Below, in pieces: positions 1 through 60,944 of a stretch of 64,000 bases of DNA (the first letter of the stretch is position 1; each line of letters begins with the position of its first letter). The translations under genes and the position numbers were made by a program. The notes beneath the pieces are model-generated. The model worked only from the letters and a program-made list of their open reading frames with translations. It was not told the origin of the DNA and made no database searches. This DNA is from Candidatus Omnitrophota bacterium (GTDB lineage: Bacteria; Omnitrophota; Gorgyraeia; Pluralincolimonadales; Pluralincolimonadaceae): contig JBAZJG010000009.1 in the NCBI GenBank assembly GCA_041651455.1, positions 16,450 to 80,449 of the forward strand. The letters run 5' to 3'.

Positions 1-44
1 TTTATCCTTATTCCGGGTGCAAGATGAACGCTGAAGGACGGTTC

Positions 45-2921
45 ATGAAAGTGAAGAGAGGCGTTGCGCTGATAATTGCCGTCGGCGTGCTCGCGCTTGT
101 CGCGATGATAGCGACGAGTTTCGCGATCAACATGCAGATGGAATACAGGGCCACGCTCAACTTCGTGAACCAGTCGCAGGCCGCGAATCTCGCGCAGGCC
201 GGCATCGACAGGGCTGTTGCCGATATCCGTTCGTGGGTCGCGAATAATACCTATGATGCCGCGATGGGGAATATCGCGGCAAATTATACGTCACCCGGTA
301 CGGAGGTCGACATAACGGGAGGAAGCTACCAGGTATTCGTCGAGAGGGAGGACCAGAAGATAAATATCAACGCCATCGACGAAACGGATTACCCGTGGAT
401 AGATACGCTCATGGCGGCCGGCTTGAGTGACGTCGATGTTGCGAGGATAATAGATTACCGTGACCCTGATTCCAACGCGCTGACACAGTTGTTAAGGTCC
501 ACAGGTGTAATTATTGCCGCCGGCAATGAGACGAACTCGAAGAATGCGCCTTACGCGAGCGTGGAAGAGCTGCGGCTCGTCCTTAATAATGATGCGAAAT
601 ATAACGCCGTCAGGGACCTTGTCACAATATATGCCCCGCTCATACAGGGCGGGCTCATATGCAAGGGTTATACGAACAGCAGGGATCCTTGGGACAGGGA
701 TACGATTCTGTCCCTGGGTTATTATTCCGGGAAGGTCATCGAGCTGGGCGCGATGAAGGAAGCCGTTGCAGCCAGTGCATCGCCGTGGCCTCCGTCAGGC
801 ACTTTTCCCGGCGCTGATGGCGTTAATTCTGGCTGGGGCGAGGCGCATGACGGAGAGTTTGCCGGAGGGTATTTGGTCGTCGATTGGCAGAACCGTTACG
901 GGCTGGATGGATGCGGGATGGTATTTACCGGTTTTATTTATATTCCCCAGAACAGGGTAAATACGAATATCGTATTCAGGATGCGCAGTGAGAATGGCTG
1001 CAGGCTTTTCATAGACGGAGTCCAGCTAATCGCCGACTGGAGCGACAGGACGATGGGCAGCTGGCCGGCCAACAACGTCCTGACCAGCGGGCCTGTACGG
1101 TTCACGCGCGGCGGGTGGCTTCCGATAAGAATTGACTATTATAATGCCGGGAACCAGAATACGCTGGAACTAAAGTGGGATGCTTTGGGCGCAGAGGACT
1201 TTGTTCCAGCCGATTACTTTGCTTTCTATCCTTCATCATATTACGGAAGGATCCTGGATAAATGGAATACGGATACTTATATTGCGGCGCCTACTCTCGG
1301 GACCGATTATAATTCCGGCGGTATCGTAAAAGTCGTGTCGACCGGAAAGGCAAAGAGGGCGGACGGAACTGTACTGGCGGAAAAGAGGATAACTTCCGTC
1401 GTGCAGGTCTTTAACACCCTCACGCAGACGACCAGGGCGGAATTCTACGCGTCGTGGTTCTCGAATTACAACGATTACAGCGACGGAGAGCTGAGAAATG
1501 TTACCTGGCTCGATAGTTGCCCTATAAGTGCCGATTCGTGGAACGGCTCATCCATGGCGTGGGAAACGGATACCTACAGCAAGAGCTATGATTCCGTCAA
1601 ACTCGGTTACTGGGATGATTTTGACGATGACATAGCATACAGCGTTATAAATTGGAGGGGCGGATACCTTACCAAGATAACGGGAATGCTTCCTTCCAGC
1701 CCCTATACTTTTCCTGATGGCAGGACTTTCTCGGTCCCGACCGGTATTATCTGGGCCGCCGATACTAGATGGGACCTCAGCTTTGGCGACACCTCCCTGA
1801 GGCAGGGTTTCAACGGGACCTACGGTCTCAGGCTCGATTGTAAGGGTAACTATAAAGAATGGGTGACGGTTCCGCCGAATCCTCCCGTGGAGGTTCAGTA
1901 TTACCCGGAAGAGAGGAGCGCTGAGCTTAACGGGAGTTTTTACTCTCCGGGAGCGGTCTTGGGTTATAATATCTTCGCCCGGTGTTATATTTATGATGAC
2001 GGGCAGAAGGAGACCTCCAGCGGAATATGGCACAGGTCTCCGAGCAAGCGCCTGACGAACCCGGGGCAGCCTACGCCTGCTTATACTCCGTCGTGGCTTA
2101 CAGGTTATCTCTTCTTAAAAGAAGATCCTTATGTGCAGGGTAACCCAAAGCCGGGCGGCGGGTATTATTGCCTTGTAAAAGACGGAGATAATGACCTTTA
2201 CGACGCGGATATGAACGAGCTTGATGTGCCCTCATATAGCATCCAAAACGGAACTTATTCCCTTTGGCCGGATGATACACAGTACTATATTTTGTCTTCG
2301 ATAGGAGTGGGGACTACTTACAGGATATATTATACATACAGGACTTCCGGAGGATGGGGTTTTATCCAGGGCAATGCACGAGGCGCCGGCAGCTCCACCA
2401 AGACGGGGGTGGTAAAGCTACGGGGTAATAATCTTTATTACGCTGATGTGGACCAATTTTGGGCGACTCATGCAAATAATGCTTTCATCGAGAAGCTCGC
2501 CGAACGCAACGCTGACTGGTGGGGATGTGACTCTGAGAGCGTAACGCAATTCGATAACATTAGGGTGATCTACCAAAAGGGGTATATCGTGTCCGCCCCG
2601 TTTATTACCAAACTGCCGACCGACAATGCCGCGATAACATGGGATTCCATAACATGGGCCGGCATTATCCCAGTTAATACGTCTATCACGATGTATGCAA
2701 GGGCGGCGGACAGCCCCTCGTCCACAGATAATTTTACCTCGAATTACGCAAGCGGCGCGTCATTATCGGGGTTGTCGGGCAGGAAGTTCCAGTACAAGGC
2801 GTTATTGGCCACGAACGCGCTTAACCCGAACGATTATTCGGCGAGCAGCGTCACGCCTGTTCTTACGGAAGTAACGGCAACATTCCACAAACCGTCGGCG
2901 CAGGTATTCTATCAGCAGTGA
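45..2921 (+). CDS. Giant GspK-like minor pseudopilin (about 958 aa) with an internal PA14 lectin-like domain. An alternative start is at 24.
   Basis: The N-terminus KRGVALIIAVGVLALVAMIATSFA is a GspK / prepilin-type hydrophobic segment. KININAID is an HhH-like GspK motif. Nt ~820-1215 carry the PA14 signature (FTGFIYIP...RLFIDGVQLIADW...LELKWD). The conserved VTWLDSCP motif is shared with the paralogs at 3811 and 7668. An RBS-like gaagga lies 8 nt before the ATG at 45. Confidence 0.6.
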   Translation: MKVKRGVALIIAVGVLALVAMIATSFAINMQMEYRATLNFVNQSQAANLAQAGIDRAVADIRSWVANNTYDAAMGNIAANYTSPGTEVDITGGSYQVFVEREDQKININAIDETDYPWIDTLMAAGLSDVDVARIIDYRDPDSNALTQLLRSTGVIIAAGNETNSKNAPYASVEELRLVLNNDAKYNAVRDLVTIYAPLIQGGLICKGYTNSRDPWDRDTILSLGYYSGKVIELGAMKEAVAASASPWPPSGTFPGADGVNSGWGEAHDGEFAGGYLVVDWQNRYGLDGCGMVFTGFIYIPQNRVNTNIVFRMRSENGCRLFIDGVQLIADWSDRTMGSWPANNVLTSGPVRFTRGGWLPIRIDYYNAGNQNTLELKWDALGAEDFVPADYFAFYPSSYYGRILDKWNTDTYIAAPTLGTDYNSGGIVKVVSTGKAKRADGTVLAEKRITSVVQVFNTLTQTTRAEFYASWFSNYNDYSDGELRNVTWLDSCPISADSWNGSSMAWETDTYSKSYDSVKLGYWDDFDDDIAYSVINWRGGYLTKITGMLPSSPYTFPDGRTFSVPTGIIWAADTRWDLSFGDTSLRQGFNGTYGLRLDCKGNYKEWVTVPPNPPVEVQYYPEERSAELNGSFYSPGAVLGYNIFARCYIYDDGQKETSSGIWHRSPSKRLTNPGQPTPAYTPSWLTGYLFLKEDPYVQGNPKPGGGYYCLVKDGDNDLYDADMNELDVPSYSIQNGTYSLWPDDTQYYILSSIGVGTTYRIYYTYRTSGGWGFIQGNARGAGSSTKTGVVKLRGNNLYYADVDQFWATHANNAFIEKLAERNADWWGCDSESVTQFDNIRVIYQKGYIVSAPFITKLPTDNAAITWDSITWAGIIPVNTSITMYARAADSPSSTDNFTSNYASGASLSGLSGRKFQYKALLATNALNPNDYSASSVTPVLTEVTATFHKPSAQVFYQQ

Positions 2922-3814
2922 GAGGGAGCGTCTTTATGAGGAATATCTTCATCCTTTTAGTGATAGCAAGCGTCTCTGCGGCGCCGGCATCATTTGCGGC
3001 GGGCGCGGATAAATATATAATTAAAGTTCCCGGAGACTGCACTACGATAAAAGAAGCTTGCGAGAGATCGCTTCCCGGCGATACGATACTGCTCGGCGAG
3101 GGCGAGTTCACGGCAGAAAACGGGATAGTGTTCAAAGGAAATACGAAGCTCGCGGGGCAGGGTGCCGACAAGACGGTCCTGAAACTCGGACCAACGGGGC
3201 TAGGGATCATATCCATCAACGGGAACATTAATAATTTTGCACTGAAGGATATAACTGTTGAGGTAAACGGCTATCCGTTTATGGTAAACGGGCTGGACGG
3301 CCTGCTTATTAAGAACTGCGTTTTCCGCGGAAAGAACCTCTCTACATGTCTTGAGATCAGCTCGGTCAGAAATGCGCAGATATTAAATTGCAATGTTGTG
3401 AACGGTGGTTACGGGCTGCAACTCTGGGGAGGCCCTATAGAACTTACTGTCAGGAACTGTATATTTTATAATAATAGAGTGGGAATCGACGTTCCTCGGC
3501 CTCCGATAATGGCAAATACCAGGGATTGGCCGAAAGAAGAAGTTGAAAAATACTGGCAGAGGCCGCGCGAAGATGTCCGCCTTGAGCTTGAATATAATGT
3601 TTTCTGGAATATAAAGGATTTCATAGATTGCAAGAAAGGCGCCAAAGACATAATGTCTGACCCCAGGTTCGCGAATCCTTCAAAGGACGATTATCACATC
3701 AAGGATAACTCCCCGTGTATCGATGCCGGCGATCCCGACAAGAAGTATGACGATCCGGACGGCTCGCGCAACGACATCGGTGCATTTCCTTCCGGCGGCA
3801 AGAAGAGGAAATGA
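2918..3814 (+). CDS. Secreted right-handed parallel beta-helix (pectin-lyase-fold) protein
   Basis: Signal peptide MRNIFILLVIASVSAAPASFAAG. Repetitive N/G/V/I-rich beta-helix rungs (NGNINNFALKDITVEVNG..., NCNVVNGGYGLQLWGG, NNRVGIDV). Overlaps the upstream gene by 4 nt. Confidence 0.5.
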   Translation: MRGSVFMRNIFILLVIASVSAAPASFAAGADKYIIKVPGDCTTIKEACERSLPGDTILLGEGEFTAENGIVFKGNTKLAGQGADKTVLKLGPTGLGIISINGNINNFALKDITVEVNGYPFMVNGLDGLLIKNCVFRGKNLSTCLEISSVRNAQILNCNVVNGGYGLQLWGGPIELTVRNCIFYNNRVGIDVPRPPIMANTRDWPKEEVEKYWQRPREDVRLELEYNVFWNIKDFIDCKKGAKDIMSDPRFANPSKDDYHIKDNSPCIDAGDPDKKYDDPDGSRNDIGAFPSGGKKRK

Positions 3815-6312
3815 CCATGTTAAGGAAGAAAAGGGGCGTCGCGCTTATAATAACGGTGGGCATGTTGTCGCTTATGGCGATACTTGCGACGTCTTTTGCC
3901 TACAATATGATGTTTGACCTCAAGGGATCGGTTAACCATGTATTCAAGCTGAAAGCCAAGAACGCAGCCGATGCCGGCATAGCCCTCGCGATTGCCTATA
4001 TGAGGAACCTCGCCATAACGGATTTTAACGCCACACCGACGGCATCATGTGATTGGGGTTATACAAACGCGTCGAGTCCGTCTTTCGATGCGCGCGACGG
4101 GACTGTGAACAATTCCACAAGCGGCCTTTTTGGGAATGTCGGCAGGAACAGTATAGCCGTATACTCGCTGAAAGTGGTTGACACCAATGCTCAGATAAAC
4201 GTCAATGACACAAACCCGAACCTCAGGGATATCCTAGGCAATCTCACGGAGGTTCTCGGCCTCGCGAGGGCGGACGGAGAAGCTATCGCCGACAACGCTA
4301 ACAGGCCGTTCGCGACGAAGGAAGAGGTGATGACCTCGACAGGATGGACAGCTGCGAAATATGCCGTGATCAGGGATTATATTGCCGTGAACGGTTATTT
4401 CGACGAAAACAGCGAGGATTCTACCGCACCGGTCCCTCTGGGGCCAGGCAGTTACCAGAGGAAGTCGCCGGTAAATATTAATACCGCGAGCTCCGAGGTC
4501 CTTCAGGCTGTCTTAAGGGGAGTGATCACCGACCAGCAAGCGGCGGCGCTTGCGGCCGCGATCATTGCCCAGCGCAACACCGTGCCGTTCAGGGGATGGA
4601 ATGCCGCAACAGCGGCAGGCGGTTTTGACGATTTTATCGATAACGTTTCCATAACGCCTGCGCTCGGTTTAAGCGACAGGGCTAATGTCAAGGATAACGC
4701 CAATCCGAACAGGATAAAGCCCTCGACAAGCACCACGGATTTCTGTTTTAACCCGGGCGGATTCTTTGAGATAACATCCACTGGAACGACGGGCGTTGAT
4801 GCCAATTCGGACGGGGACCTTTCGGATATCATCGACATGGTATCGGCTAAGCAGGAGACCGTCGTCATCGCCAGGATATACGAGGTCCTGAACTATACGA
4901 CAAAAGAGCAGTTCCGCGGGGAGGATGCCAATTATAACGGTGTCTTGGACCCAGGCGAGGATAAAAACGGCAACGGTATCCTTGAACTGCCTGTTTTTTC
5001 AAGGGTGACATGGCTGAATTCATGCCCCGTACTGTCAAACGAAGACCAGGGCCTTGTATATGCCGCGAACTATTCGACGATCCCCAATTCACTGAAACTC
5101 GGTTATTGGGATGGTTTCGACGAAGACAACGACAATGTCAGCAAGAACGGATACAGTTGGTCGAACTGGCAGCAGCAGAACGGGGTGTTGAACATATCCG
5201 ACAGCGACGCTGACGGCGAATGCGAGATGTGGGGATCGGGTTGGCCGAAGTTCGCGCTGGCGGATATCAGCAAGTGGACATTCGGAGGTACTTTCTCCTT
5301 TCGCGTATCTCTAAGGCCTTCCCCGGGCGGCGATGGATGGGAAGATTCCGGGCATATCGATTTTTCGTGGGCAGGGCAGGTTAAAGGTAAACTGTGGACG
5401 CAGAATTGGGGTTTCCAATACTCTCCAAGGAGGGATATTACCCGGCCGGGATGGACCGTGGCTAACGATTCTGCCACAAGCGAGCCCTCATCGGCAAGGG
5501 AGGGAAAGGATTTTGCTGACAGCAAGGTACTGCTCCACATGTGGAAAAACAGCCCCGCCCTGAGGAACGAGCGAACCTACAACCTTGGGTACCTGTATGG
5601 ATTAAGCGATCCTCAGATTAACCACTATTTCGATTATACGGCAACGTCTGGCGACCAGGGGGCGGAGCAGTTCCACGGCGTATGCCCCGTAAGGGAGACC
5701 CTGAAACTCGTCGTTAGTAACGCGCAGAGCCCCAATTACCGCGTCTATCTAGCCGTAGGGCAGGGTTGGCACAGGTATTATAATTTCAGTAACGGATGGT
5801 TCCTTAGCAGCGTAGGTTTCAGCCCGACGACTACCGGTTATGTGATGATACCGTTCCATGCCGACGCGTCGAACGAGCTTAAGCGCGACAGGTACGGTTT
5901 CTGGACAATAACCAACAATGACATAAACAGCTGGCAGCTTACGCAATGGTATCCCGTTCTTTACGGGAATAACGCTTCTCCGCAATGGGACGAACTGAGG
6001 ATAATATCCCCTGACGGGACATATCGCTGTCCGACCTTCATGGCGGGGGAGAACGTCAGGTGGGGGACGATATCCTGGACGGTGACGGTGCCTTCAACCG
6101 CTAACGCCTCATCTGAACAGGTTTCGATGCAGGTTGACACCGGCAGCGGCGCGGCAGCGGTGTCGAAAGACGGCCCGATAGGAGGCGTTTCGGGAGGCGC
6201 GGCCTTTATCGCGTTGCTTTCCAGCATTAACGCCAATTTCACGGAAACACCGGTCCTCGAAGACGTAACGTTGACTTATCTTCCGCCGGTTGAGATCGTA
6301 TATTGCAAATAG
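3811..6312 (+). CDS. Giant GspK-like minor pseudopilin, paralog 2 (833 aa)
   Basis: N-terminus KRGVALIITVGMLSLMAILATSFA. SPVNINTASSEVLQAVL is an HhH (GspK/ComEA-like) motif. Shares FRGEDANYNGVLDPGED and VTWLNSCP with the paralog at 7668. ATGA overlap with the upstream gene. Confidence 0.6.
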   Translation: MTMLRKKRGVALIITVGMLSLMAILATSFAYNMMFDLKGSVNHVFKLKAKNAADAGIALAIAYMRNLAITDFNATPTASCDWGYTNASSPSFDARDGTVNNSTSGLFGNVGRNSIAVYSLKVVDTNAQINVNDTNPNLRDILGNLTEVLGLARADGEAIADNANRPFATKEEVMTSTGWTAAKYAVIRDYIAVNGYFDENSEDSTAPVPLGPGSYQRKSPVNINTASSEVLQAVLRGVITDQQAAALAAAIIAQRNTVPFRGWNAATAAGGFDDFIDNVSITPALGLSDRANVKDNANPNRIKPSTSTTDFCFNPGGFFEITSTGTTGVDANSDGDLSDIIDMVSAKQETVVIARIYEVLNYTTKEQFRGEDANYNGVLDPGEDKNGNGILELPVFSRVTWLNSCPVLSNEDQGLVYAANYSTIPNSLKLGYWDGFDEDNDNVSKNGYSWSNWQQQNGVLNISDSDADGECEMWGSGWPKFALADISKWTFGGTFSFRVSLRPSPGGDGWEDSGHIDFSWAGQVKGKLWTQNWGFQYSPRRDITRPGWTVANDSATSEPSSAREGKDFADSKVLLHMWKNSPALRNERTYNLGYLYGLSDPQINHYFDYTATSGDQGAEQFHGVCPVRETLKLVVSNAQSPNYRVYLAVGQGWHRYYNFSNGWFLSSVGFSPTTTGYVMIPFHADASNELKRDRYGFWTITNNDINSWQLTQWYPVLYGNNASPQWDELRIISPDGTYRCPTFMAGENVRWGTISWTVTVPSTANASSEQVSMQVDTGSGAAAVSKDGPIGGVSGGAAFIALLSSINANFTETPVLEDVTLTYLPPVEIVYCK

Positions 6313-7514
6313 GAGAAGAGATGCGGGGACTTAAAAATTTGGCCTTCGTTTTGTTGTTATCTGCCGTTATCTTGTGCCTGGGCGAGGCGCAGGCGGATAT
6401 TATTGAGTTGAAGGAGGCGGGGGAAAAGATAGACGGGAAGATAATCGAGGAAAGCGACACTCATGTGACCGTGAAACTCAAGACGGGGGGAAAGAGCACC
6501 TTTCCCAAAGCGTGGATAAAGAACATAAAGAAAGCGGAGATACCGGAAGAGGAACTTTATACGAAGCAGGACGTATACCTTTCGAAGCTCAAGATGCTTG
6601 ACCCGAATGATGCCGAAGCGCAGTTAAGCATCGCCAAGTGGTGCTTTGATAATGCCACCGCGGACAACGGGCTCTTTGAAATGGCCGACAGGCACTATAA
6701 GGCCGCGAAAGAGTTGGACCCGAAATTTGCCGAAAAAGGCGGCAAGGAGCTTGCCGCTGCACAGGAGAAAGAGGCAGAAAAACTGTTTTCCGTAGCGGAA
6801 ACCGAATATAAGCTGGGCGAATATTTTAAGGCCGAACAGATGGCGATATCGGTGATTTCGCTTTACCCGGATTCCTCTTTTGCGGGAAAAGCCAGGGGGC
6901 TTATAGCGAAGATCTGGGGTAATGCCAGGGCGCCGAAGATATTCGATAACCCGCAGAACCTGCCCGAGATCGTATTTACGGTTGAAGAGATGCAATCAGT
7001 GCTTTCCCATATGGGCACCGAAGAGCGCAAGCAGGCGTATTTCATGAAGTGCCTTGATCGCGGTATAGATTACGAGGAGCGGGCGGAGGAGGTCGATAAA
7101 GACAGGAAGGGCGGGTATTATATGGCAGCGATATCATGTTACGATGTCGTTTCGGGTTCAGCCGCAGGCCAAGTGAAGAAATCCGCCGACTTCAAGATGC
7201 AAGGCTCATTAAAAAAATATTTTGACGGTAAACCGGAGCCGTTCAGCGATGCACGTTACGCGCTGATGGCCGGATATATTCTAAAGATACAGGACCCGTC
7301 TTATATAGAAAAGCTTACCGTCCAATATTCCAAGCTGGGCGACGAGTTGTTTAAGAAAGCGAAGAGGATGAAGCAGCCTGAGAAATCAGAAAAAGCCAAA
7401 ACGGCGTATTTTTGCTTCTCGATCGTAAACAATTATTCAAAAGACGAAATGATAAGGCAGGATGCCTTCGAGAAAATGATAGAATGCCAGCGCCTTGAGA
7501 GAGCGCGCAAGTAG
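6303..7514 (+). CDS. Secreted partner protein of unknown function, paralog A. The probable start is at 6321.
   Basis: Signal peptide MRGLKNLAFVLLLSAVILCLGEAQA. Paralogous to 10255..11457, with the same C-terminus (E/V)CQRLERARK and a shared KQPEK...AYFC(F/Y)SI block. No family recognised. Confidence 0.45.
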   Translation: MQIGEEMRGLKNLAFVLLLSAVILCLGEAQADIIELKEAGEKIDGKIIEESDTHVTVKLKTGGKSTFPKAWIKNIKKAEIPEEELYTKQDVYLSKLKMLDPNDAEAQLSIAKWCFDNATADNGLFEMADRHYKAAKELDPKFAEKGGKELAAAQEKEAEKLFSVAETEYKLGEYFKAEQMAISVISLYPDSSFAGKARGLIAKIWGNARAPKIFDNPQNLPEIVFTVEEMQSVLSHMGTEERKQAYFMKCLDRGIDYEERAEEVDKDRKGGYYMAAISCYDVVSGSAAGQVKKSADFKMQGSLKKYFDGKPEPFSDARYALMAGYILKIQDPSYIEKLTVQYSKLGDELFKKAKRMKQPEKSEKAKTAYFCFSIVNNYSKDEMIRQDAFEKMIECQRLERARK

Positions 7515-7575: not shown

Positions 7576-7667
7576 TTAATAAAATAAGAAAACCGATAAA
7601 AGAAGAATTATTTTTTTTGAGCAAAAATGCCCCCGTGGGCATTCAATCAAACCATAGGGTTGAAGCA

Positions 7668-10247
7668 ATGAATAGCAGTAACAGGAAGGGTGTCGCTCTC
7701 ATCATAACGGTAGGGATCCTTGCGCTCCTGGCTATGATTGCGACCTCTTTCGCGTATAATATGATGGTTGACCTCAAGGACGCCGCCAATTATGTATTGA
7801 AGATGAAGGCAAAGAACGCGGCTGAAGCGGGGGTAAACCTTTCGATAGCACACCTCAGGATGCTTGCCACAAGCGATTTCAATGCAGTCCCTACAACCGC
7901 ATGCGATTGGGCATATACGAGTTCCACGCAGCCGTCATTCGACGGCCGCGACGGCACAGCAGGCAATTCAACGAGCGGATTGCTGGGCGATGTCGGCAGG
8001 GGGCATATCGCCGTGTGTTCGTTGAGGGTTACCGACACCAATTCACAGATAAACATAAACGACACCAACCCGAACCTGAATGTCATCCTTGGCAATCTCG
8101 GGACCATTTTGGCCATTCCGGGATGGGCACAGGCGAATGCGGACAGCATGGTCTCCGGAAGGCCTGCGGGCGGTTATGCGACCAAGGAAGGGATAGTCGA
8201 ATATATGCCGGGCGCCGACCTGACGGCAAAGAGGGCTAATTATGCCCTTATAAGGGACTTCGTGACCGTCAACAGCTATATAGACCAATACAGCGAGGAC
8301 GCGGCCGCCCCGTTGCTTACCAGTAATAATTACCAGAGCAAGTCGCCGGTCAATATCAACACGGCAAGGAGGGAGGTATTGCGCGCGGTCCTGCGCCCGC
8401 TTGTCAGCACGGATGTGAACGCGGCTCAGGTAGCCAACGCGATAGTCACCGCGAGGACAATGGTCTCCCCGTTCCGGAGCTGGAACGGGACTGCGGCACA
8501 GGGAGGTTTCAATGCTTTTATAGACAACATAAATCCGACCATACTGAACAATCCGCAGAAGGAGGCCATCAAGAATAATTTCAACCCGAACAAGGTCAAA
8601 CAGGGCACATATACGACGGATTTCTGTTTCCACCCGGGCGGTCTATACGAGATCGTCTCGACCGGCACGGTCGGATTAGACAATAATTCGGACGGCGCGG
8701 TTGAGGATGTCAAGGCAAGGCAGGAGCTCACCGCGGTCGCGAGGATATACAGCATCCTTAATTATACGGCAAAGGAGCAGTTCCGCGGCGAGGACGCGAA
8801 CTATAACGGCATTTTGGACGCGGGCGAGGACGCGAACAGCAACGGCGCAATCGACAGCCCGACGTTCCAGAATGTGACATGGATGAATTCATGCCCGGTG
8901 GTCTCGACGGAAGGCGACAGCGTCAAATATCCCGCGGTCGGCGGTTATACGGCAGTTCCGAATTCCATCAAGCTCGGAGTTTGGGATAATTTTGACGAGG
9001 ACAATTACGATACGAACGGAGACGGAGTGGTCGAGAACGGCTTCAGTGTCTGGGCGTGGACAAAATTGTCCGGCGGGCTGTCGACAAGAGAAATAAGAGA
9101 TGCCGATGCCGACGGCGATATGGAGATTTATGGTACCGGAGACTATTCGGGGTCCCCGTGGATTTACCCTAAATTCCAATTAAGGCCGGACTGGGTATTC
9201 GGAAAAAGGTTCTCGCTTAGGGCCTTTCAGATCCCGAATGTAGACGGGGACGGAATAGACGATGGCGGTCATATAGATTTCACTAGTTTCGCCGCCGGCA
9301 CCACATATGGATCCTTGCTGATGATGAGATTTGCATATAACTATCCGGGAGGCAGGGATATGACCAGGCCTCCTGCGTCAGTAATATGGGATGATTCTGC
9401 CACAGCTGCCGGTAATGCAAAAAAAGGCAAGGATTTTCCCGATAGCAGCATCTTCCTGAAGATGAGTAACACCAGTATGCGTCTATACAGGCTGGGCGAC
9501 CTGTACGGTTATACAGACCAATTTACGGACCACTATAATTTTTGTACCGATCCTACAGCAGGTGCCGTTACTTTTTTTGAAGAGGGGATAGATAGGTATC
9601 ACGGGGTAATGCCGGAAATATATACTTTGAAACTTGCCGTGAGCCCCGATTTGTCGCCAAATTACCGGGTCTGGTTCGCGGTCGGGAACATAAATACCGC
9701 CGAACAATATGACTATCATAACGGTACATATACCGGGTTTATAGCGTGTTCAGCTCCGTCCGCTAATTTTATGGCAGTTCCGATACATACCAGTTCGCGC
9801 ATGTCTTATGATAGGTATGACTGTCACGATATAGCTTGCCCCAGCAATACCTGGAATATCAGCGCATGGTACCTGACGCTTTACGGGCAGCATTCCTCCA
9901 CAACATGGGATGAGGTAAGGGTCATACCCGATACCGGGTTTTACCAGTCGTCCGCATTTGCGGCATCGTTACTTAACGGCGGTAATCCCGTAATATGGGG
10001 TACGGCTTCATGGACTATTAGCATACCTTCCACCGCTAGCCCGGCAAGTGAAATATGTAACGTACAAACGGATATCGGAAGCGGAATGGTGAATGCTGCA
10101 TATAACGGGGCAATAGGGGGGTCCTCAAACTCAATCTACTATAAGATAAATTTATCCTCGATCGACACGGATTGCAGCGAGACGCCGGTCTTCGAGGACA
10201 TGACTATAACTTATCTACCCAGGGTAAGCATATTATATCAGAGGTAA
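7668..10247 (+). CDS. Giant GspK-like minor pseudopilin, paralog 3. The ORF track begins at a TTG at 7617, but the start is more likely the ATG at 7668.
   Basis: N-terminus RKGVALIITVGILALLAMIATSFA. SPVNINTARREVLRAVL is an HhH motif. VTWMNSCP motif present. A 7-bp hairpin (7626-7643) and a T8 tract lie between 7617 and 7668, so the 5' end is probably untranslated. Confidence 0.6.
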   Translation: MNSSNRKGVALIITVGILALLAMIATSFAYNMMVDLKDAANYVLKMKAKNAAEAGVNLSIAHLRMLATSDFNAVPTTACDWAYTSSTQPSFDGRDGTAGNSTSGLLGDVGRGHIAVCSLRVTDTNSQININDTNPNLNVILGNLGTILAIPGWAQANADSMVSGRPAGGYATKEGIVEYMPGADLTAKRANYALIRDFVTVNSYIDQYSEDAAAPLLTSNNYQSKSPVNINTARREVLRAVLRPLVSTDVNAAQVANAIVTARTMVSPFRSWNGTAAQGGFNAFIDNINPTILNNPQKEAIKNNFNPNKVKQGTYTTDFCFHPGGLYEIVSTGTVGLDNNSDGAVEDVKARQELTAVARIYSILNYTAKEQFRGEDANYNGILDAGEDANSNGAIDSPTFQNVTWMNSCPVVSTEGDSVKYPAVGGYTAVPNSIKLGVWDNFDEDNYDTNGDGVVENGFSVWAWTKLSGGLSTREIRDADADGDMEIYGTGDYSGSPWIYPKFQLRPDWVFGKRFSLRAFQIPNVDGDGIDDGGHIDFTSFAAGTTYGSLLMMRFAYNYPGGRDMTRPPASVIWDDSATAAGNAKKGKDFPDSSIFLKMSNTSMRLYRLGDLYGYTDQFTDHYNFCTDPTAGAVTFFEEGIDRYHGVMPEIYTLKLAVSPDLSPNYRVWFAVGNINTAEQYDYHNGTYTGFIACSAPSANFMAVPIHTSSRMSYDRYDCHDIACPSNTWNISAWYLTLYGQHSSTTWDEVRVIPDTGFYQSSAFAASLLNGGNPVIWGTASWTISIPSTASPASEICNVQTDIGSGMVNAAYNGAIGGSSNSIYYKINLSSIDTDCSETPVFEDMTITYLPRVSILYQR

Positions 10248-10254: not shown

Positions 10255-11457
10255 ATGAACAGAGCGAGAATACATAAAGTTTGGATATTCATATTGGCTT
10301 ATGCCGCAGCATCGGCTTGGGCCGTAGTCCGGGCGGATGATGTAATCCTAAAAGAGAGCGGACGTGTCATTGTCGGCAGGATACTCGGAGAAAAAGACGG
10401 GATGCTTACCGTAAAGATGACTAAAGGCGGTACCTGCGTTCTCCCGAGGGATTGGATAAAGCAGATAATAAAGAAAGATATTGCCGACGAAGAGCTTTTT
10501 ACCAAAGGTGATTTATATCGGCAGAAGCTGAAAGACATCGATCCGGAATCCGCGGAAGACCATCTGTCGCTTGCCGATTGGTGCCTTAAGAACGGAACTC
10601 CGGAAAACGGAATGCTCTTTGCCGCCGAATCCCATTTTAATATTGCGATGCAGATTGATCCGGACTCCGCAAAACGCGGATCGGCAGAACTTCTAAAGGC
10701 AAGGGAGAAGACTGCCGAGAAGTCCTACTCTATAGCCGTGATAGAGTATGATAACGGAGAATACATTAAATCAGAAACCGAAGCACTATCGCTTATTTCC
10801 GCGTATGGTGAGACAAGATATGCATTAAAGGCTAAGGACTTGCTTGTCAAAATATGGGGCAAGGACAGGGCAGCCGCGTTACTGGAACCTAAAGATGATT
10901 TGCTTCCGGGAATTGTATATACAAAGGAAGACTTGCAGTCTGTTCTTTCAAACTTCCAAAATGAGGAGCAGGCAGAGCTGTATTTTTTGAAATGTATAAG
11001 AAAAGCGAAAGATTGCGAGCAGAGGAGCGAGGAAGTCCCTGTAGGCAAGAGGGCAGGTTATTACAGGATAGGCATTGACTGCTACAGAAATGTTTTGTCA
11101 AGCGTAAAGCCTGAGGTAAGGGCCATTGCAGATTTAAATATGCAGGTATTGCTTAAGAAATATTTTGTCGACCCGCCGGCATTGTACAGTGATTATTATT
11201 TCTCTCTTGCATCCAATATGATGCTGTTAATAAAGGACCAGCAACTCGTTCAGGATATAAGCACGCGGTACTCGGAGACAGGAGACGGATTATTCAAGAA
11301 GGCAAGAAGGCAAAAGCAGCCCGAGAAGGGCAAGAACGCAATGGCCGCATATTTCTGTTATTCCATAGCAAATAATTTTTCTAAGGACGGGAAGATAAGG
11401 GAGAATGCTATTGAGAATATGGTCGAATGCCAGCGCCTGGAGAGAGCACGCAAGTAG
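10255..11457 (+). CDS. Secreted partner protein, paralog B
   Basis: Signal peptide MNRARIHKVWIFILAYAAASAWA. Colinear with 6303..7514, including the C-terminal VECQRLERARK. Confidence 0.45.
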   Translation: MNRARIHKVWIFILAYAAASAWAVVRADDVILKESGRVIVGRILGEKDGMLTVKMTKGGTCVLPRDWIKQIIKKDIADEELFTKGDLYRQKLKDIDPESAEDHLSLADWCLKNGTPENGMLFAAESHFNIAMQIDPDSAKRGSAELLKAREKTAEKSYSIAVIEYDNGEYIKSETEALSLISAYGETRYALKAKDLLVKIWGKDRAAALLEPKDDLLPGIVYTKEDLQSVLSNFQNEEQAELYFLKCIRKAKDCEQRSEEVPVGKRAGYYRIGIDCYRNVLSSVKPEVRAIADLNMQVLLKKYFVDPPALYSDYYFSLASNMMLLIKDQQLVQDISTRYSETGDGLFKKARRQKQPEKGKNAMAAYFCYSIANNFSKDGKIRENAIENMVECQRLERARK

Positions 11458-11533: not shown

Positions 11534-13132
11534 ATGGGAAAACGTGCTCTTGGAATCGATATAGGCGCAGGCTCAGTCAAGCTCGTAGAGCTTGAGAAGA
11601 CATCCGAAGGCGTGCAACTCCTTCGGGCAAAGTTTTTTGACCTCACTCAGCACCCCGACCAGGAGAAACGCGAAGCCCTCGTAAGGGAAGGTCTCGAAGG
11701 GCTCCTCAAGACAGAAAAGATCAGAAGCGGCAATACTGCAATATCCCTCTCAGGCCAATCAGTCTTCATCAGGTTCCTTAAGCTCCCCAAGATACAAAAA
11801 GGCAAAGTAGACAAGATAATAAAATACGAGGCCCAGCAGCAGGTTCCGTTCCCCCTTGATAAGATAACCTGGGACCACCAGATATTCCATAGCAGTGCCG
11901 GCCCGGAAGAGGATGTGCTCTTTGTCGCCGCCAAGAAGGAGCTTGTCGAGGCCACGTTATTGAATTTTTCGAGGACCGGCCTCAACGTCGAGATCGTCGA
12001 CGTGAGCCCGCTCTCACTACTCAACGCGATCACCTACAACGAGCCTCTCGCCAAAGGCGTCATAATAGATATAGGAGCGAAGGCGACGAACCTGATAGTC
12101 CTCGACGCAAAGGGCTTCTGGGTGCGCTCGGTGCTTGTGGCAGGCGATGAAATGACGCACGCGATAGCGTCGAAAATGAACATACCGTTCGACAAGGCCG
12201 AAGAACTCAAGCGCAAGGAAGGCATGGTCGTCCCGTCGGACAACCTCGTGCCGTCGAACATAAGCTCTACGGGCCAGGAGCTGGTAAACATACTTAATAC
12301 AGTTGTCTCCGACATGGTCTCGTCGATAATACAATCCCTGGAATTTTATAAGTCAAAGCACGGCAGGGACGTAGTCTTTGGAGAGGTAATACTCTCCGGC
12401 GGCGGTTCGAAGCTGAAGGGCATAGAGGACTACCTTGCAAAAGGCCTAGGAATGCAGATAAGGCGCGCGAACCTCGGCCAGAAGATAAAATGCCCTTCAA
12501 ACCTCAGGGTAGACATAGATTTCCAGTCGAGGTTCGGGGCCGCGATAGGCCTCGGCCTGCGCCTGCTCCAGAGATGCCCCACGAATATAGACCTGCTGCC
12601 TGCCGAAAGGAAAGAGGACAGGGATTTCAAGAAGGAAAGGATCTGGATAATGGCGGCAGGGGTCATGCTGTCGCTGATACCTTTCACGATAGCGATGAAT
12701 ATATGGTTCCAGTCCGGTGCGCTCAGGAAACAGATAATGTTTCTCGACGACATATTGGCGCAATATGACGACGTGAAAGCGAAAATAGCGTTGCTGAAAG
12801 ACGATATCAAGAAGGGCGAACAGAAGATAAAACCGCTCGAAGGCGTCGCTATAAGGAGATCGTTGCTTTTGGAGGCGCTCCTTGAAGTCGAGAAGCTGCT
12901 CCCGAAAGAGACGTGGTTGACCTCGCTTAGCGAAGAGAAGGATTGGGTCTCTATAGAAGGCAGGACTTCAGAGAACCTTCTCACTATAACGGAGTTCAAG
13001 AACAAGCTTTCTGCGTCATCGTTGTTCGATTCGGTTGAAATAATCTACGCTAGCCTTCCGAAGGATTCCGAGGAAGGTATTGGCCAGTTGAGGGATTTTT
13101 CGATCAAGTTCAAACTGAAGGCAGGACAGTAG
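11534..13132 (+). CDS. pilMN: PilM-PilN fusion protein (type IV pilus / T2SS inner-membrane assembly)
   Basis: The N-terminus ALGIDIGAGSVKLVEL is the actin-like PilM signature. The C-terminal third has a TM helix (IWIMAAGVMLSLIPFTIAMNIWF) followed by a coiled coil, as in PilN. Confidence 0.65.
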   Translation: MGKRALGIDIGAGSVKLVELEKTSEGVQLLRAKFFDLTQHPDQEKREALVREGLEGLLKTEKIRSGNTAISLSGQSVFIRFLKLPKIQKGKVDKIIKYEAQQQVPFPLDKITWDHQIFHSSAGPEEDVLFVAAKKELVEATLLNFSRTGLNVEIVDVSPLSLLNAITYNEPLAKGVIIDIGAKATNLIVLDAKGFWVRSVLVAGDEMTHAIASKMNIPFDKAEELKRKEGMVVPSDNLVPSNISSTGQELVNILNTVVSDMVSSIIQSLEFYKSKHGRDVVFGEVILSGGGSKLKGIEDYLAKGLGMQIRRANLGQKIKCPSNLRVDIDFQSRFGAAIGLGLRLLQRCPTNIDLLPAERKEDRDFKKERIWIMAAGVMLSLIPFTIAMNIWFQSGALRKQIMFLDDILAQYDDVKAKIALLKDDIKKGEQKIKPLEGVAIRRSLLLEALLEVEKLLPKETWLTSLSEEKDWVSIEGRTSENLLTITEFKNKLSASSLFDSVEIIYASLPKDSEEGIGQLRDFSIKFKLKAGQ

Positions 13133-13134: not shown

Positions 13135-13899
13135 ATGGCAAAGGGCATTAAGCCGCATGTAATGACGAAACTTGTGCTGGGGCTCGTGTTCCTCGGGTCC
13201 CTTTGTGTCGCCATATTTGTCGCTTTCGACAGGTCTTCCCTCGAGAGATCCATACAGGATAAGACCGGCGAACTCGAGAGTTATAAGGATCAGGGGCTTG
13301 CCGTCCTTAATAGGGATAGGCTCAGGCTCGAAAAACAGCTTAAGGCCCTTAAGGACGTGAACGACCAATTGAGTGCCGGGCTCTTCTCGAACCCGAAATC
13401 AAAGATGCCGAAGGAAGCCGGCGATGCGTTAAAGTTCAAGGAAGAACTTTACAGGGTCCAGAACAAGATAAAGGAAGAAGGGATGCCGATAGATTTCCAG
13501 TTCCCGTTCTGGCTCGGTTTCGAAAGATATGAGCACGATATTCCCGTTTCAGCCGATCTGCCTGTCAGGGCTAAGCAGCTCGAGATAATAAAAGAGATCA
13601 TGGATTTGATGTTGCAGGCGAAGGTTCCTGAGGTGTCGTCAATAGAGTTCCTCGAATCGAAGAACGTGACTTATGACGGCGGCAAGGAGCCGATGTTCAG
13701 GGAGTTCCCTGTAAGGATGTCATTCAAATGCAAGAACGACAACCTTCTCGGTTTCTTGTATAAGATATATGTTTCCGGTATACCTTTCAGAGTGGACATG
13801 CTCAAGATCAAGGTCCTTAATGAGGAGACCGGCGAGAAGGGCGAGCTTAAAGTGGAAGCCGTTATAGTGGCTGCAATACAGCAGGCGGATAAGATATGA
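13135..13899 (+). CDS. PilO-like bitopic membrane protein
   Basis: N-terminal TM helix (LVLGLVFLGSLCVAIFVAF), a coiled-coil segment and a periplasmic domain. Its position right after pilMN matches PilO. Confidence 0.4.
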   Translation: MAKGIKPHVMTKLVLGLVFLGSLCVAIFVAFDRSSLERSIQDKTGELESYKDQGLAVLNRDRLRLEKQLKALKDVNDQLSAGLFSNPKSKMPKEAGDALKFKEELYRVQNKIKEEGMPIDFQFPFWLGFERYEHDIPVSADLPVRAKQLEIIKEIMDLMLQAKVPEVSSIEFLESKNVTYDGGKEPMFREFPVRMSFKCKNDNLLGFLYKIYVSGIPFRVDMLKIKVLNEETGEKGELKVEAVIVAAIQQADKI

Positions 13900-14572: not shown

Positions 14573-15691
14573 ATGGATATTACCAATGGGGTTAAAAGAA
14601 CGGTTCCGCCATTTTTTTGTATCTTTCTGACTTTCAATTTGTTCTTTATTATCTCATTGTATTATTTTGCCGGGGACGAAGCCTACGCTGCCACGGGAGC
14701 CGGATATTCTAATGATTCCCTTGAGGCAAAAATAATAGCCGAGGACCTGGCAAAGCAGAAGAAAGTAGAAAAGAAATCCCTCGTTGCAGACCTCTTTAAG
14801 CAGGCAAAAGCCTCATACGACGCGAAAGATTACGAGACCTCCCAGAAGATGTTCGAAAGAGTCGTCCAATTAGACCCGAAGAACAAGCAAGCCTCGCACT
14901 ATGTGGAATTGTGCAAGGAAGGCATGGCTAAGGATGTCCCCGCATCAATATCGGGCACCCTTATGAAGAGGGGTAAAGCAAATTACGCGAACAAACAGTA
15001 TTCGGCCGCAATAGCGGATTTTGAAACTGCGTTGGCCGCGAACCCTAATGACTCCGAAGCCAGGTTGTGGCTCGAGAAGGCCCATAAGGGAGAAGAACTG
15101 TATTCAAGGGAAAAATCGACCAAAGAAGAGCGAAAAGATATAGTTAATGATAGGAAGGTTTTGAAGGAAGAGAAGGACACGGCAGAGCAGGCAGCCCTGC
15201 GAGACGTCGACAAGGGTTGGCTGCCTCCGGCTGCGCCGGTAAAGGAAGAGCTTCAGGTTGAAGAGGTTATATCGGAATCCGAGAGGGCCGAACAGGAGGC
15301 CAAGAAGGCGCTTATCGATAAGATGCGCAGCGTGATGGTCCCTGCGATTTCAGTCACGGACGCTGATATCCAGGACCTGATACGTCAGCTTATGGAGATG
15401 ACCGGCGTCACGATAGTCGTGGATGAAAGGGAGCTTGCAGCCCTCACGAAGGATGCCCCTATAAAGATATCATTGAGCACTGCAACGCCAATGCCGTTGC
15501 TGGACGTGCTTGATATTGCGTTCAAGACGACGCAGTTGGGCTATAAAGTAGAGCCAAATTACGTATACGTAACGAGCAAGCGCATGAGGGATATAGAAGA
15601 CCTCGTGACAAGGACGTATAAGCTTAAATACCCGGAGCGCAAGACGAGGGAAGTTAAACTGAAGGAATTTGAGGTCAAAGAGGCGGAATAA
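14573..15691 (+). CDS. TPR-repeat protein with a C-terminal secretin N0 (STN-like) domain
   Basis: An N-terminal hydrophobic anchor, then TPR-like repeats (AKASYDAKDYETSQKMFERVVQLDPKN..., GKANYANKQYSAAIADFETALAANPND). The C-terminal ISVTDADIQDLIRQLMEMTGVTIVVDE...PLLDVLDIAFKTTQLGYKVEPNYVYVTS matches the GspD/PilQ N0 fold pattern. Confidence 0.5.
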   Translation: MDITNGVKRTVPPFFCIFLTFNLFFIISLYYFAGDEAYAATGAGYSNDSLEAKIIAEDLAKQKKVEKKSLVADLFKQAKASYDAKDYETSQKMFERVVQLDPKNKQASHYVELCKEGMAKDVPASISGTLMKRGKANYANKQYSAAIADFETALAANPNDSEARLWLEKAHKGEELYSREKSTKEERKDIVNDRKVLKEEKDTAEQAALRDVDKGWLPPAAPVKEELQVEEVISESERAEQEAKKALIDKMRSVMVPAISVTDADIQDLIRQLMEMTGVTIVVDERELAALTKDAPIKISLSTATPMPLLDVLDIAFKTTQLGYKVEPNYVYVTSKRMRDIEDLVTRTYKLKYPERKTREVKLKEFEVKEAE

Positions 15692-15693
15692 AT

Positions 15694-16809
15694 ATGGTAA
15701 AAAATCTCTGTCTTTTTGCGCTGGCGTCCCTTCTAATACTCCCCCGTATGGTGTCTGCAGAAGACATCAACGTCGCGAATTACCTGAAAGACAGCCTTCC
15801 TCCGCAGGAAGGCCGGAAGATAACGTATAACCAGTCATCAAAACTCCTTACCGTTACGGACACCAAGTCGAACCATAACCTGATAAAGAACCTTATAAAA
15901 CAGTTCGAGATAGGGCCAAAACAGGTCATGATCGAGACAAGGTTCGTAGAGGTCGATGTTACCGATCTCATGGAGATCGGTATTGAGTGGGATTTCTACA
16001 AACAGGGCCATCCTAGCGGCAAAGGTTTCAGGGGCATGCGTTGGGGCGATCCTACTCCCGGCGCCGATTATCAGGGCGTCCATTGGAATAACGACCTTGA
16101 ATCCACGTTCCCTATAACAGGGAATTTTGCCGGGCAGCTGGCGCTCTATAAAGTGCTGGAATCCGGTGATTATATAGTATCTAACCTCAGGGCTTTGGCT
16201 GAGCAGGGCAAGGTGAACCTGTTGTCATCCCCGAAGATAACGACGGTCGCCGGCCAAATGGCGAATATCCAGGTAGTCAGGACCCAGCCGTATGTTTCGG
16301 ACTTTACGCTTGAAAATATCGGTACGGCGGAAGACCCTATATGGAGCTATAAGCTAACTCTTGCCGAGAAGCCGATAGGTATATTTCTCGAGGCCACTCC
16401 TTATGTGACCGAAGGCTCGAACACGATAACGCTTGACCTCCATCCCGAGGTCAGCATATTGAGAGATCAGGTGCGGATATCGACGCTTACGACAAGCGGT
16501 GAGACCGGTGAACTCGGTAACGTTACCGCCGACGACTCGATACCGCTTATCCCGGAAGACCTCGGATGGCCTGTTGTGGATGTCAGGACTACGCAAACCA
16601 GCGTCGTAGTCGACAGCGGTCAGACGATAGTCCTTGGCGGGATGATCAAGGATGAAGAGCAGGTGATCAAGAGAAAAGTCCCGGTATTGGGGGATATACC
16701 GCTGCTTGGGAAGGCTTTCCAGTATGATTACAAAGAACAGCGCAAGAAGAACCTCCTTATATTCATCACGGCCAGCATCATCAATGCCAGAGGGGAGGTA
16801 ATAAGGTGA
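15694..16809 (+). CDS. Short secretin (GspD/PilQ family), paralog 1
   Basis: Signal peptide. VMIETRFVEV (start of the N3 / secretin domain). C-terminal KVPVLGDIPLLGKAFQY...KNLLIFITASII is the canonical secretin motif. Confidence 0.75.
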   Translation: MVKNLCLFALASLLILPRMVSAEDINVANYLKDSLPPQEGRKITYNQSSKLLTVTDTKSNHNLIKNLIKQFEIGPKQVMIETRFVEVDVTDLMEIGIEWDFYKQGHPSGKGFRGMRWGDPTPGADYQGVHWNNDLESTFPITGNFAGQLALYKVLESGDYIVSNLRALAEQGKVNLLSSPKITTVAGQMANIQVVRTQPYVSDFTLENIGTAEDPIWSYKLTLAEKPIGIFLEATPYVTEGSNTITLDLHPEVSILRDQVRISTLTTSGETGELGNVTADDSIPLIPEDLGWPVVDVRTTQTSVVVDSGQTIVLGGMIKDEEQVIKRKVPVLGDIPLLGKAFQYDYKEQRKKNLLIFITASIINARGEVIR

Positions 16810-59998: not shown

Positions 59999-60168
59999 GA
60001 GCCGATGTTTTGAAAGCAGAGCTTCTATTTATACGAAGTTAAGTAGAAAACCACCCCAAATTCCCTTTGAATTACCTAATTTAGGCCTTATAATGTTATA
60101 TGAAGTAAAAAATCTTAAATATAAATTCATATGTTACGCTAATAAATTGGTTCAAGGAAGGATAGATA

Positions 60169-60867
60169 ATGGAAGATATATCAATCATTAAGAAGACAGA
60201 GACTGCATTAGATGATTTAATAAATCTTTGGCGCAGACGTAAATTATTATGCATCATTGTCGTAGCAATAATCAGTACGCCGTTAATATATTCAGTTGTC
60301 ATAACATCACAAATGAAATCAAAACTTGAAAACGCAGAAAAAGCAAAAGAGAACGCTGAAAAGGCAAAAGATAAAGCTGAATTGCAGCTTGCTCCTTTTT
60401 TAGCAGCAGCAAATCAAGGGTTTCCAAATATTGACCCGGAAAAAAGGTTAGAATTGCTTCTATCTAAGCTCAACGATGCAGTCATAAATGTTCAGGATGC
60501 GGCTCGACGCATATCGTCAGAACGCAATATAAGTGCTGATTTGAAGTGTACTCTTATCGAGAATTTGAAGAAGATACAACCACTTGAGGTTAACGTTGTT
60601 AGTATTATCGGAGATGCAGAAACGTATTCACTTGCGGTGCAAATTAAAGATATATTTGAGGAAGCGGGATGGAAAGTCGAAGGCGTAGATCAGGCAACAT
60701 ATACTGTTCCACCAAAGCATCTTGTGCTTGTATTTGGAAAGAAAGCTACACCAGAGCTTGAAAGAGCCATCACTCCACTCGTTGATAGTTTTGGTTACCA
60801 GCGAAAAGCAGTGCTCGACGATATGATTGGAGAAAATGCTATGAGGATTATAGTCGGTTCAAAATAG
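60169..60867 (+). CDS. Membrane-anchored coiled-coil protein of unknown function (232 aa), AT-rich
   Basis: RBS ggaagga. TM helix LLCIIVVAIISTPLIYSVVI, followed by a KxxE-rich coiled coil (ENAEKAKENAEKAKDKAE). Sigma70-like TTGAAT ... TATAAT upstream at about 60060-60092. Confidence 0.45.
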   Translation: MEDISIIKKTETALDDLINLWRRRKLLCIIVVAIISTPLIYSVVITSQMKSKLENAEKAKENAEKAKDKAELQLAPFLAAANQGFPNIDPEKRLELLLSKLNDAVINVQDAARRISSERNISADLKCTLIENLKKIQPLEVNVVSIIGDAETYSLAVQIKDIFEEAGWKVEGVDQATYTVPPKHLVLVFGKKATPELERAITPLVDSFGYQRKAVLDDMIGENAMRIIVGSK

Positions 60868-60944
60868 TAATATAGAATCTAAGCAGGCTTTTAAGAAACA
60901 TATGGCAAAACAATGAAGGTTATATCTAGGTAAAAGGATTTCAG

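Follow-up and report, generated by a model that had tools for sequence, protein, structure and literature searches.

A giant minor pseudopilin of a Candidatus Omnitrophota bacterium carries a genuine PA14 beta-sandwich domain. Its gene lies at the start of a 64,000-nucleotide stretch of contig JBAZJG010000009.1 (assembly GCA_041651455.1), which we refer to as the window. The 965-amino-acid product, here called copy 1, is the first of three large GspK-like pseudopilins encoded in one operon, and its PA14 domain has taken the place of one half of the alpha-domain typical of GspK. No member of the Omnitrophota is in culture; most are ultra-small bacteria that are suspected to live on other cells, and their pili have been proposed as an attachment device (PMC10066038). 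No adhesin or ligand-binding element has so far been assigned to these pili, and the PA14-bearing GspK-like protein (PA14-GspK) represents a concrete, expressible candidate.

The identity of the domain is supported by sequence profiles and predicted structure alike. The open reading frame (ORF) at 24..2921 on the forward strand matches the Pfam family PF07691 over residues 315-390 (27.3 bits, E 3.6e-6), which places this single sequence above the gathering cutoff of 24 bits. The score is modest, and only the C-terminal half of the model is covered (positions 61-138 of 147). Among 5.8 billion proteins searched, copy 1 has 25 homologues, every one of which has a precomputed PF07691 match, and the identical protein in NCBI/ENA is already named 'PA14 domain-containing protein [Candidatus Omnitrophota bacterium]'. 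When compared with the PDB, a profile of these 25 homologues matches the PA14 dyads of RsgI3 and RsgI4 (6qe7, E 6.5e-23; 6qdi, E 2.3e-22). A profile of the domain alone matches the RsgI dyads at E 1.5e-25 and also reaches sulfatase PA14 domains, Lap PA14, MpPA14 and anthrax protective antigen. Among 1.84 billion representative proteins, the domain alone finds 495 PA14-type matches at E <= 1e-3, of which about 20 representatives share the architecture of copy 1 and the others are typical tandem-PA14 proteins.

The predicted fold agrees. An AlphaFold2 model of residues 200-408 has a predicted template modelling score (pTM) of 0.74, and all 38 Foldseek matches of the PA14 domain model with E <= 1e-3 are themselves PA14 domains. 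Their template modelling (TM) scores, 0.4-0.68, are lowered because an insert of about 45 residues is left unmodelled. These matches include RsgI, Flo5, Flo1, Epa1, Epa6, Epa9, Cea1, KpFlo2, protective antigen and MpPA14 (TM up to 0.68, normalised to MpPA14). The original prediction had recognised PA14 from two peptide strings, both of which are in frame in the ORF, and the profile and fold comparisons bear it out. It had placed the domain at 820-1215, a location that does fall inside the PA14 region but starts too late. The first PA14 strands, G209-G-L-I-C-K-G-Y and then G236-K-V-I-E-L-G, both lie upstream of nucleotide 820, and the domain therefore extends over residues ~205-400 (nucleotides ~636-1223). 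Residues G209, G210, L211, Y216 and G236 are invariant among family members. The first of these segments is a candidate for the GL-x-G-x-YY strand, and the model has strands there; its HMMER alignment to 'GLRGEYYNNM' of RsgI3 is not significant alone.

The protein that hosts this domain was described as a giant pseudopilin, and its features support an assignment to the apical GspK/PilX type (K-type). Its real start may be the ATG at nucleotide 45 (MKVKRG...). All three GspK-like copies share the N-terminus KRG/VALII, which lacks a glutamate at position +5 (Glu+5); this is a hallmark of the apical K-type subunit (PMC13533445). The upstream GspG, GspI-like and GspJ-like proteins keep Glu+5 (G/FTIIE, G/FTLIE and G/LTLVE, respectively). 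Residues 12-203 of copy 1 match the NCBIfam model T2SS_GspK (NF037980) at E 2.1e-13, and the 25-homologue profile matches GspK (3ci0_K) over residues 142-200 at E 0.02. The full-length model (mean predicted local distance difference test score, pLDDT, 71) has helices at residues 12-74, 123-144 and 182-196, and in Foldseek it matches XcpK in the XcpGHIJK filament model (9a1f_T) at E 8.5e-5 and 20% identity. The Pfam scan of copy 1 gave no match to PF03934 or PF21687, nor did it detect the N_methyl signature.

Beyond the PA14 domain, copy 1 resembles its two paralogues. The strands at residues ~431-471 would form the return into the pilin sheet. At the extreme C-terminus, all three paralogues share T944, P945, V946, T951, T953, P957 and Y963, in the pattern TPV(L/F)xxVTxT(F/Y)..P....Y. 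By analogy with GspK and CpaL (PMC13533445), this conserved segment is a probable last strand of the K-type pilin sheet, which it would complete. In that case, the 'extension' of about 500 amino acids would topologically be an insertion, as in CpaL. Foldseek also matches the full-length model to legume lectins and to an alginate lyase, at E 1e-4 to 1e-3. The legume-lectin-like matches probably fall in the shared beta-rich region, at about residues ~540-800 of the model, and suggest a predicted ConA-like jelly-roll common to all three copies. If this holds true, copies 2 and 3 may bear a different lectin-like fold.

Alignment of the paralogues shows how the PA14 domain is accommodated. In copy 1 it stands opposite the T2SSK segment, the second helix-hairpin-helix (HhH) subdomain, of copies 2 and 3, and about 30 residues separate its end from the shared strand GGIVKVVSTG. 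The alpha-domain of copy 1 retains the first HhH subdomain and lacks the second, with PA14 in its place. Consequently, half of the GspK alpha-domain has been replaced, and PA14 has not simply been appended. A GspK alpha-domain can evidently have one half exchanged for a beta-sandwich module. The claim that only copy 1 has the domain also holds: copies 2 and 3 show no PA14 by Pfam at E <= 1 and have hhalign probabilities of 0.4% and 0.1%, and a six-frame translation of the window gave a single match to a family-specific hidden Markov model (HMM), namely copy 1, with no other PA14. In another Omnitrophota locus (L027), the PA14-less GspK at the same operon position has a weak, sub-cutoff T2SSK match (E 0.0038, 18 bits).

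Three giant K-type pseudopilins without Glu+5 are encoded in one operon that has only a single GspI and a single GspJ. Behind each of copies 2 and 3 lies an accessory gene of about 400 codons (6303..7514 and 10255..11457) whose product has a weakly Lepto_7_Nterm/PTPDL-like N-terminus. The three K-type copies may represent alternative, mutually exclusive filament tips. Across Omnitrophota loci, the number of K-type copies varies from one to three.

The family is conserved well beyond the window. When one genome of each GTDB species was scanned, 42 loci emerged, which were typed with HMMs for the N-terminal, PA14 and C-terminal parts and with phmmer for neighbouring genes. PA14-GspK proteins of 770-1100 amino acids, with PA14 at about residues 200-400, occur in 25 loci (a count that includes the window contig), and in 21 of these the gene directly follows GspI-GspJ. 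In at least five loci (L007, L010, L013, L017 and L026) it is the sole GspK-like gene found before PilMN, which argues that PA14-GspK is the system's own GspK and not an accessory subunit. Several genomes have two PA14-GspK loci, for example UBA6215 (L005, L019) and fen_1319 (L008, L023). The 25 loci fall into two paralogous locus types. In other Omnitrophota (L027, L028, L038, L042 and L043), a GspK-like gene without PA14 occupies the same position, so that PA14 appears as a lineage-specific acquisition.

The gene downstream is also recurrent. A beta-helix protein with a Sec signal is encoded immediately after PA14-GspK in 13 loci, and in truncated L011. In L009 the next gene (11347-16695) encodes a 1,782-amino-acid fusion of Beta_helix, three PA14 (E 1e-64), Laminin_G_3, Glucodextran_B and Ig-like domains, a composition which suggests that the downstream partner might be a carbohydrate-active protein. 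The scanned locus records are mostly labelled as Omnitrophota metagenome-assembled genomes, with some labelled Planctomycetia, Actinomycetota or unclassified. Several records titled 'uncultured Planctomycetia' or 'Actinomycetota' (L003, L006, L016, L018, L026 and others) contain the Omnitrophota-specific operon, and these titles are probably automatic mislabels.

In PA14 domains of the RsgI, Epa, Flo and MpPA14 kinds, an aspartate pair, the DcisD motif, coordinates the Ca2+ that binds the ligand. The pair in RsgI3 PA14-A is D86-cis-D87, in strand beta5, which holds the Ca2+ together with Q130 of calcium-binding loop 2; PA14-B of the same protein has N-G at the DcisD site and binds neither Ca2+ nor pectin; and the PA14-A of C. 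clariflavum, a DcisN variant, still binds Ca2+ and xylan (PMC6852018). HMM alignments place S322-E323-N324-G325 of copy 1 opposite T-D-D-G of RsgI3 PA14-A and N-G-G of PA14-B, and N374 of copy 1 is present in loop 2, opposite Q130. The neighbouring residues 375-376 have the highest column entropies in the PA14 core among close homologues. Such variability is as expected for a specificity loop, though loops vary anyway.

Across the 25 loci, the DcisD site reads D-D-G in 13, E-Q in four and E-N in two (the window and L006), the remainder being R-D, N-D, K-N or G-D. The 13 members with D-D-G also have N or D in loop 2. Every protein of the second locus type is among them, as are the more divergent ones of the first type, and the ancestral state of the family was therefore probably a Ca2+-dependent lectin. 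The window's clade has E-N, E-Q or E-H instead of DcisD. Judged by these residues, its Ca2+-site chemistry is changed or lost, and binding chemistry may consequently differ from that of canonical PA14 lectins. The natural D-D and E-N variants within one family allow direct comparison.

A further peculiarity of the family is an insert within the PA14 domain. It contains a near-invariant acidic motif, G263-A-D265-G...E273-A-H275-D276-x-E278-F-A280-G281-G-Y283 (nucleotides 810-872 on the forward strand), which is kept in both locus types. The insert may serve as a second metal or ligand site, or as a subunit interface.

Taken together, we think it probable, with real room for doubt, that copy 1 is the apical K-type tip pseudopilin of an Omnitrophota type IV filament machine, and that it presents PA14 distally as a binding, most likely glycan-binding, module. 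This proposal builds on the identity and fold of the PA14 domain, the K-type features of its host, the exchange of HhH-2 for PA14, and the phylum-wide conservation of the protein and its gene order; from these we infer the tip location, the exposure of the filament, ligand binding and the class of ligand. Copy 1 would be processed by the prepilin peptidase and, with GspI and GspJ as partners, would nucleate the fibre. Because it has no Glu+5, it would remain at the apex and display PA14 at the distal end, where the domain would bind a ligand, most likely a glycan. Copies 2 and 3 would provide alternative tips without PA14. In favour of ligand binding count the D-D-G and loop-2 N/D residues of 13 of the 25 family members, the variable loop 2, and the L009 partner with its three PA14 domains.

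Several observations weigh against this proposal. The NF037980 score of copy 1 (50.5 bits) is far below the curated cutoff of 130. The canonical DcisD pair is E323-N324 in the window protein, a departure from the Ca2+-lectin motif, and the N-G variant at the same site is inactive in RsgI3 PA14-B (PMC6852018). The most conserved segment of the PA14 domain is the acidic insert, a family-specific feature that the PA14 consensus lacks and that has no relation to the established sugar site. The GspE-type ATPase of the operon passes its model cutoff, which means that the filament may stay periplasmic and might bind cargo instead of mediating adhesion. To our knowledge, the PA14 domains of glycosidases and of anthrax protective antigen are not proven lectins. 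Accordingly, the part of the original prediction that implied glycan-directed adhesion is weakened by E323-N324, while its PA14 domain, its apical-type giant pseudopilin and its restriction to copy 1 all stand. Glycan-directed adhesion through copy 1 is plausible, and we describe its PA14 as a predicted ligand-binding, most likely glycan-binding, module.

An unlikely alternative is that the operon encodes a true type II secretion system (T2SS) with a short periplasmic pseudopilus, whose PA14 tip recognises cargo (a polysaccharide, a glycoprotein or the beta-helix protein) that is then pushed through the secretin. The operon runs GspE-GspF-GspG-GspI-GspJ, PA14-GspK, the beta-helix protein, GspK-like copy 2 with its 403-amino-acid protein, GspK-like copy 3 with its 400-amino-acid protein, and a PilM/PilN fusion, the genes from GspE to GspJ being taken from the ENA contig (L001) that extends the window upstream. 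Its ATPase scores 648.7 with the NCBIfam GspE model, over the cutoff of 630.25, and falls below the cutoff of PilB. GspF, GspG, GspI and GspJ likewise have T2SS models as their best matches, all under the cutoffs; no PilT-like gene was seen in the loci scanned; and in most loci a possible cargo, the Sec-signal beta-helix protein, is encoded directly downstream. Against this, PilM-PilN and the PilX_N-type features are like those of type IV pili, and three interchangeable tips of ~90-105 kDa suit a diversity of adhesion better than they suit a piston. We also know of no T2SS with a lectin tip.

It is rather doubtful that the PA14 fold has lost its lectin activity and now has a purely structural or protein-binding role, whether as a spacer or as a docking site for GspJ or the beta-helix partner. 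The replacement of DcisD by E-N, E-Q or E-H in the window's clade speaks for such a loss, and the strongest conservation lies, as expected for an interface, in a non-canonical insert that AlphaFold2 cannot place alone. Yet N374 and a D/N-rich loop 2 are retained, half of the family retains D-D, and the variability of loop 2 in close relatives resembles that of a specificity loop. The C. clariflavum PA14-A, moreover, binds Ca2+ and xylan with a DcisN site (PMC6852018).

More speculatively, the adhesive tip and the beta-helix partner might form a 'grab-and-cut' unit, an idea that we rate as improbable. The PA14-tipped GspK filament, retractile or extensible, of an ultra-small, host-dependent Omnitrophota cell would grip a glycan of the host or prey envelope, and the depolymerase-like partner, which in L009 has PA14 and further carbohydrate-binding modules of its own, would degrade capsule, extracellular polymeric substances or sheath polysaccharide; the PA14-less paralogues, each with its own accessory gene, would act as interchangeable tips through which a single machine gains several target specificities. 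The notion that the PA14 likeness is a chance match to a low-information consensus, which the single-sequence Pfam score just 3 bits over threshold and the half-covered model might invite, is ruled out by profile matches to the PDB at E 1e-23 to 1e-25, fold matches exclusively to PA14 and the 495 PA14-type representatives.

The features of copy 1 and of the neighbouring genes discussed here are collected in Table 1.

Table 1. Position of copy 1, its parts and its neighbours in the window, with the evidence for each.
Feature	Position	Strand	Evidence and remarks
PA14-bearing GspK-like minor pseudopilin gene, copy 1, 965 aa	24..2921	+	ORF; NCBI name; NCBIfam T2SS_GspK
Prepilin-type (class III) signal and hydrophobic alpha1-N, MKVKRG/VALIIAVGVLALVAMIATSFA	45..125	+	Read from sequence; Ile, not Glu, at +5
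GspK-like N-terminal part: long alpha1, first pilin beta-strands, first HhH subdomain of alpha-domain	57..635	+	NF037980, 3ci0_K, XcpK, model helices
PA14 domain, residues ~205-400	636..1223	+	Family HMM over residues 205-400 at E 1e-86; Pfam, profile and fold
Family-specific insert in PA14, residues 242-294	747..905	+	Near-invariant columns; pLDDT <50 for residues 242-285 in both models
E323-N324-G325, position of the DcisD-Gly Ca2+/sugar motif, PA14 strand beta5	990..998	+	HMM alignments; roles from PMC6852018
N374-A-G-N-Q-N, equivalent of calcium-binding loop 2 (Q130/N131 in RsgI)	1143..1160	+	Alignment to 6qe7; column entropies
Beta-strands after PA14, residues ~431-471 (GGIVKVVSTG...VVQVF), common to copies 2 and 3	1314..1436	+	Paralogue alignment; model strands 431-444, 450-463, 466-471
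Beta-rich region of ~470 aa, common to all three copies, no Pfam family	1437..2843	+	Pfam, paralogue alignment, model
Conserved extreme C-terminus (TPVLTEVTATFHKPSAQVFYQQ), candidate terminal beta-strand	2853..2918	+	Paralogue alignment; model strand 946-956
Sec-signal right-handed beta-helix protein, 298 aa	2918..3814	+	Pfam Beta_helix 28.5 bits
GspK-like copy 2, 833 aa, no PA14	3811..6312	+	Second HhH kept: Pfam T2SSK at residues 221-274, above cutoff
GspK-like copy 3, 876 aa, no PA14	7617..10247	+	T2SSK at residues 245-272, sub-threshold (19.6 bits; cutoff 24.2)

Compared by sequence with the PDB, the beta-helix partner matches a capsule K1 depolymerase at E 0.0019, a level that does not permit an activity to be assigned. 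The PilM-PilN fusion (11534..13132, 532 amino acids) is followed by the 3' part of the operon: two further ORFs, a protein with tetratricopeptide repeat (TPR) and N0 features, and two secretins. The ORF at 13135..13899 weakly matches the Amuc_1100 family, pilus-like proteins of Akkermansia (E 1e-8, below cutoff). The secretin region, 14573..17927, comprises three adjacent ORFs. The first (14573..15691) encodes the TPR protein, with weak N0/STN matches, and the others (15694..16809, 371 amino acids; 16806..17927, 373 amino acids) encode short paralogous secretins that both contain a Secretin_N and a Secretin domain. The secretin might be heteromeric or split. GspH was not identified among the operon genes. 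Two tandem GspE/PilB-like ATPase genes lie upstream of GspF in many loci (L003, L005, L006, L008, L025, L027 and L043), and three in L038.

The rest of the window holds housekeeping genes that have nothing to do with the filament system: PolA, glycogen synthase, CoaE, Rho, MetH, FtsH and tRNAs. Window positions 58000..62000 have a G+C content of 0.45-0.47, against about 0.57, and contain tRNA-Thr, tRNA-Tyr, tRNA-Gly, a DUF3800 protein (58903..59829), a 232-amino-acid ORF and a glucoamylase-like protein (60945..62984). This low-G+C stretch may be a small island beside the tRNAs.

Modular pilins with a binding module are already well established, and the PA14 call is already present in public annotation, so that the gain here is one of context, not of discovery. 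What is new is the exchange of part of a K-type subunit's alpha-domain for PA14, the giant size of this subunit, its phylum-wide conservation in two locus types, and its coupling to a beta-helix partner. In the literature on Omnitrophota pili with PA14, on GspK with PA14 and on Velamenicoccus pseudopilins, we found no published description of a PA14-GspK family.

Among solved structures, the PA14 domains of RsgI3 and RsgI4 (6QE7, 6QDI) are the closest sequence relatives (E 1e-25). The beta-sandwich is common to both, and every residue of strand beta5 and loop 2 can be aligned. The RsgI domains are tandem dyads on a clostridial anti-sigma-factor membrane sensor, whereas the window domain has a conserved insert of about 50 amino acids and is housed in a pilin. 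RsgI PA14-A, whose ligand is pectin or xylan, has DcisD and Q/N; in the window protein the DcisD site reads E-N. The same fold is found in the PA14 lectins of adhesins: MpPA14 of a Marinomonas RTX adhesin (5J6Y, 6X8D), Lap PA14 (6M8M) and fungal Epa1, Flo5 and Cea1. All of these modules sit at the far end of a structure on the cell surface, as we propose for the window PA14. They are Ca2+- and DcisD-dependent sugar binders on RTX or glycosylphosphatidylinositol-anchored stalks, and share 13-16% identity with the window PA14.

The T2SS tip pseudopilin GspK/XcpX (3CI0, 9A1F) is a close counterpart of the host protein. It likewise lacks Glu+5, has its pilin sheet interrupted by an alpha-domain, and is encoded after GspI-GspJ. 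GspK has ~300-330 amino acids and two HhH subdomains, whereas the window protein has 965, with HhH-2 swapped for PA14 and about 500 beta-rich amino acids before the C-terminal strand. Another giant (~1300 amino acids) with a K-like pseudopilin N-terminus is Verru_Chthon cassette protein A (TIGR02600), which a related superphylum encodes in cassettes alongside proteins B and C. Copy 1 matches TIGR02600 weakly over its first ~60 residues (E 4e-6). Upstream of it, the GspI-like and GspJ-like genes match cassette proteins B and C. Membership of copy 1 in TIGR02600 was rejected, the match being N-terminal only and scoring 25 against a cutoff of 332.

Copy 1, as a K-type pilin module plus PA14, fits the definition of a modular type IV pilin given by Raynaud et al. 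(2021), in which a pilin module is combined with one that is not peculiar to pili. Their survey lists nine proteins that combine pilin and PA14 (IPR012902-IPR011658), PA14 being among the frequent pilin modules, and 76 PA14-PilY1 proteins, the third most common PilY1 architecture; it also cites GspK as a modular pilin with an inserted domain (PMC8179133). In Streptococcus sanguinis, PilB has a vWA module and PilC a ConA-like lectin module (PMC8179133). As in these pilins and in PA14-PilY1 tip adhesins, the predicted binding module of the window protein is borne by a pilin or tip-complex carrier. In PilB, whose structure has been characterised, the module is joined by a short linker to the C-terminal end of the pilin module, whereas PA14 lies inside the K-type alpha-domain of the window protein. 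A PilC/PilY1 tip adhesin was considered for copy 1 and rejected: Pfam finds no PilY1 beta-propeller (IPR008707) at E <= 1, and a pilin-type N-terminus is present. Because copy 1 has no Pfam N_methyl match, a survey screened on IPR012902 may have missed such proteins, and signature-based surveys may generally undercount modular pilins of the K-type.

A parallel in overall design is offered by CpaL of the Caulobacter Tad pilus (PMC13533445), a large subunit at the K position. It begins with a pilin-like domain, has an extensive adhesin region in its middle, and is proposed to end in a beta-strand that returns to the pilin sheet and completes it. CpaL lacks PA14 and is part of another filament class (T4c), and for the window protein the corresponding topology is suggested by conservation of its C-terminus.

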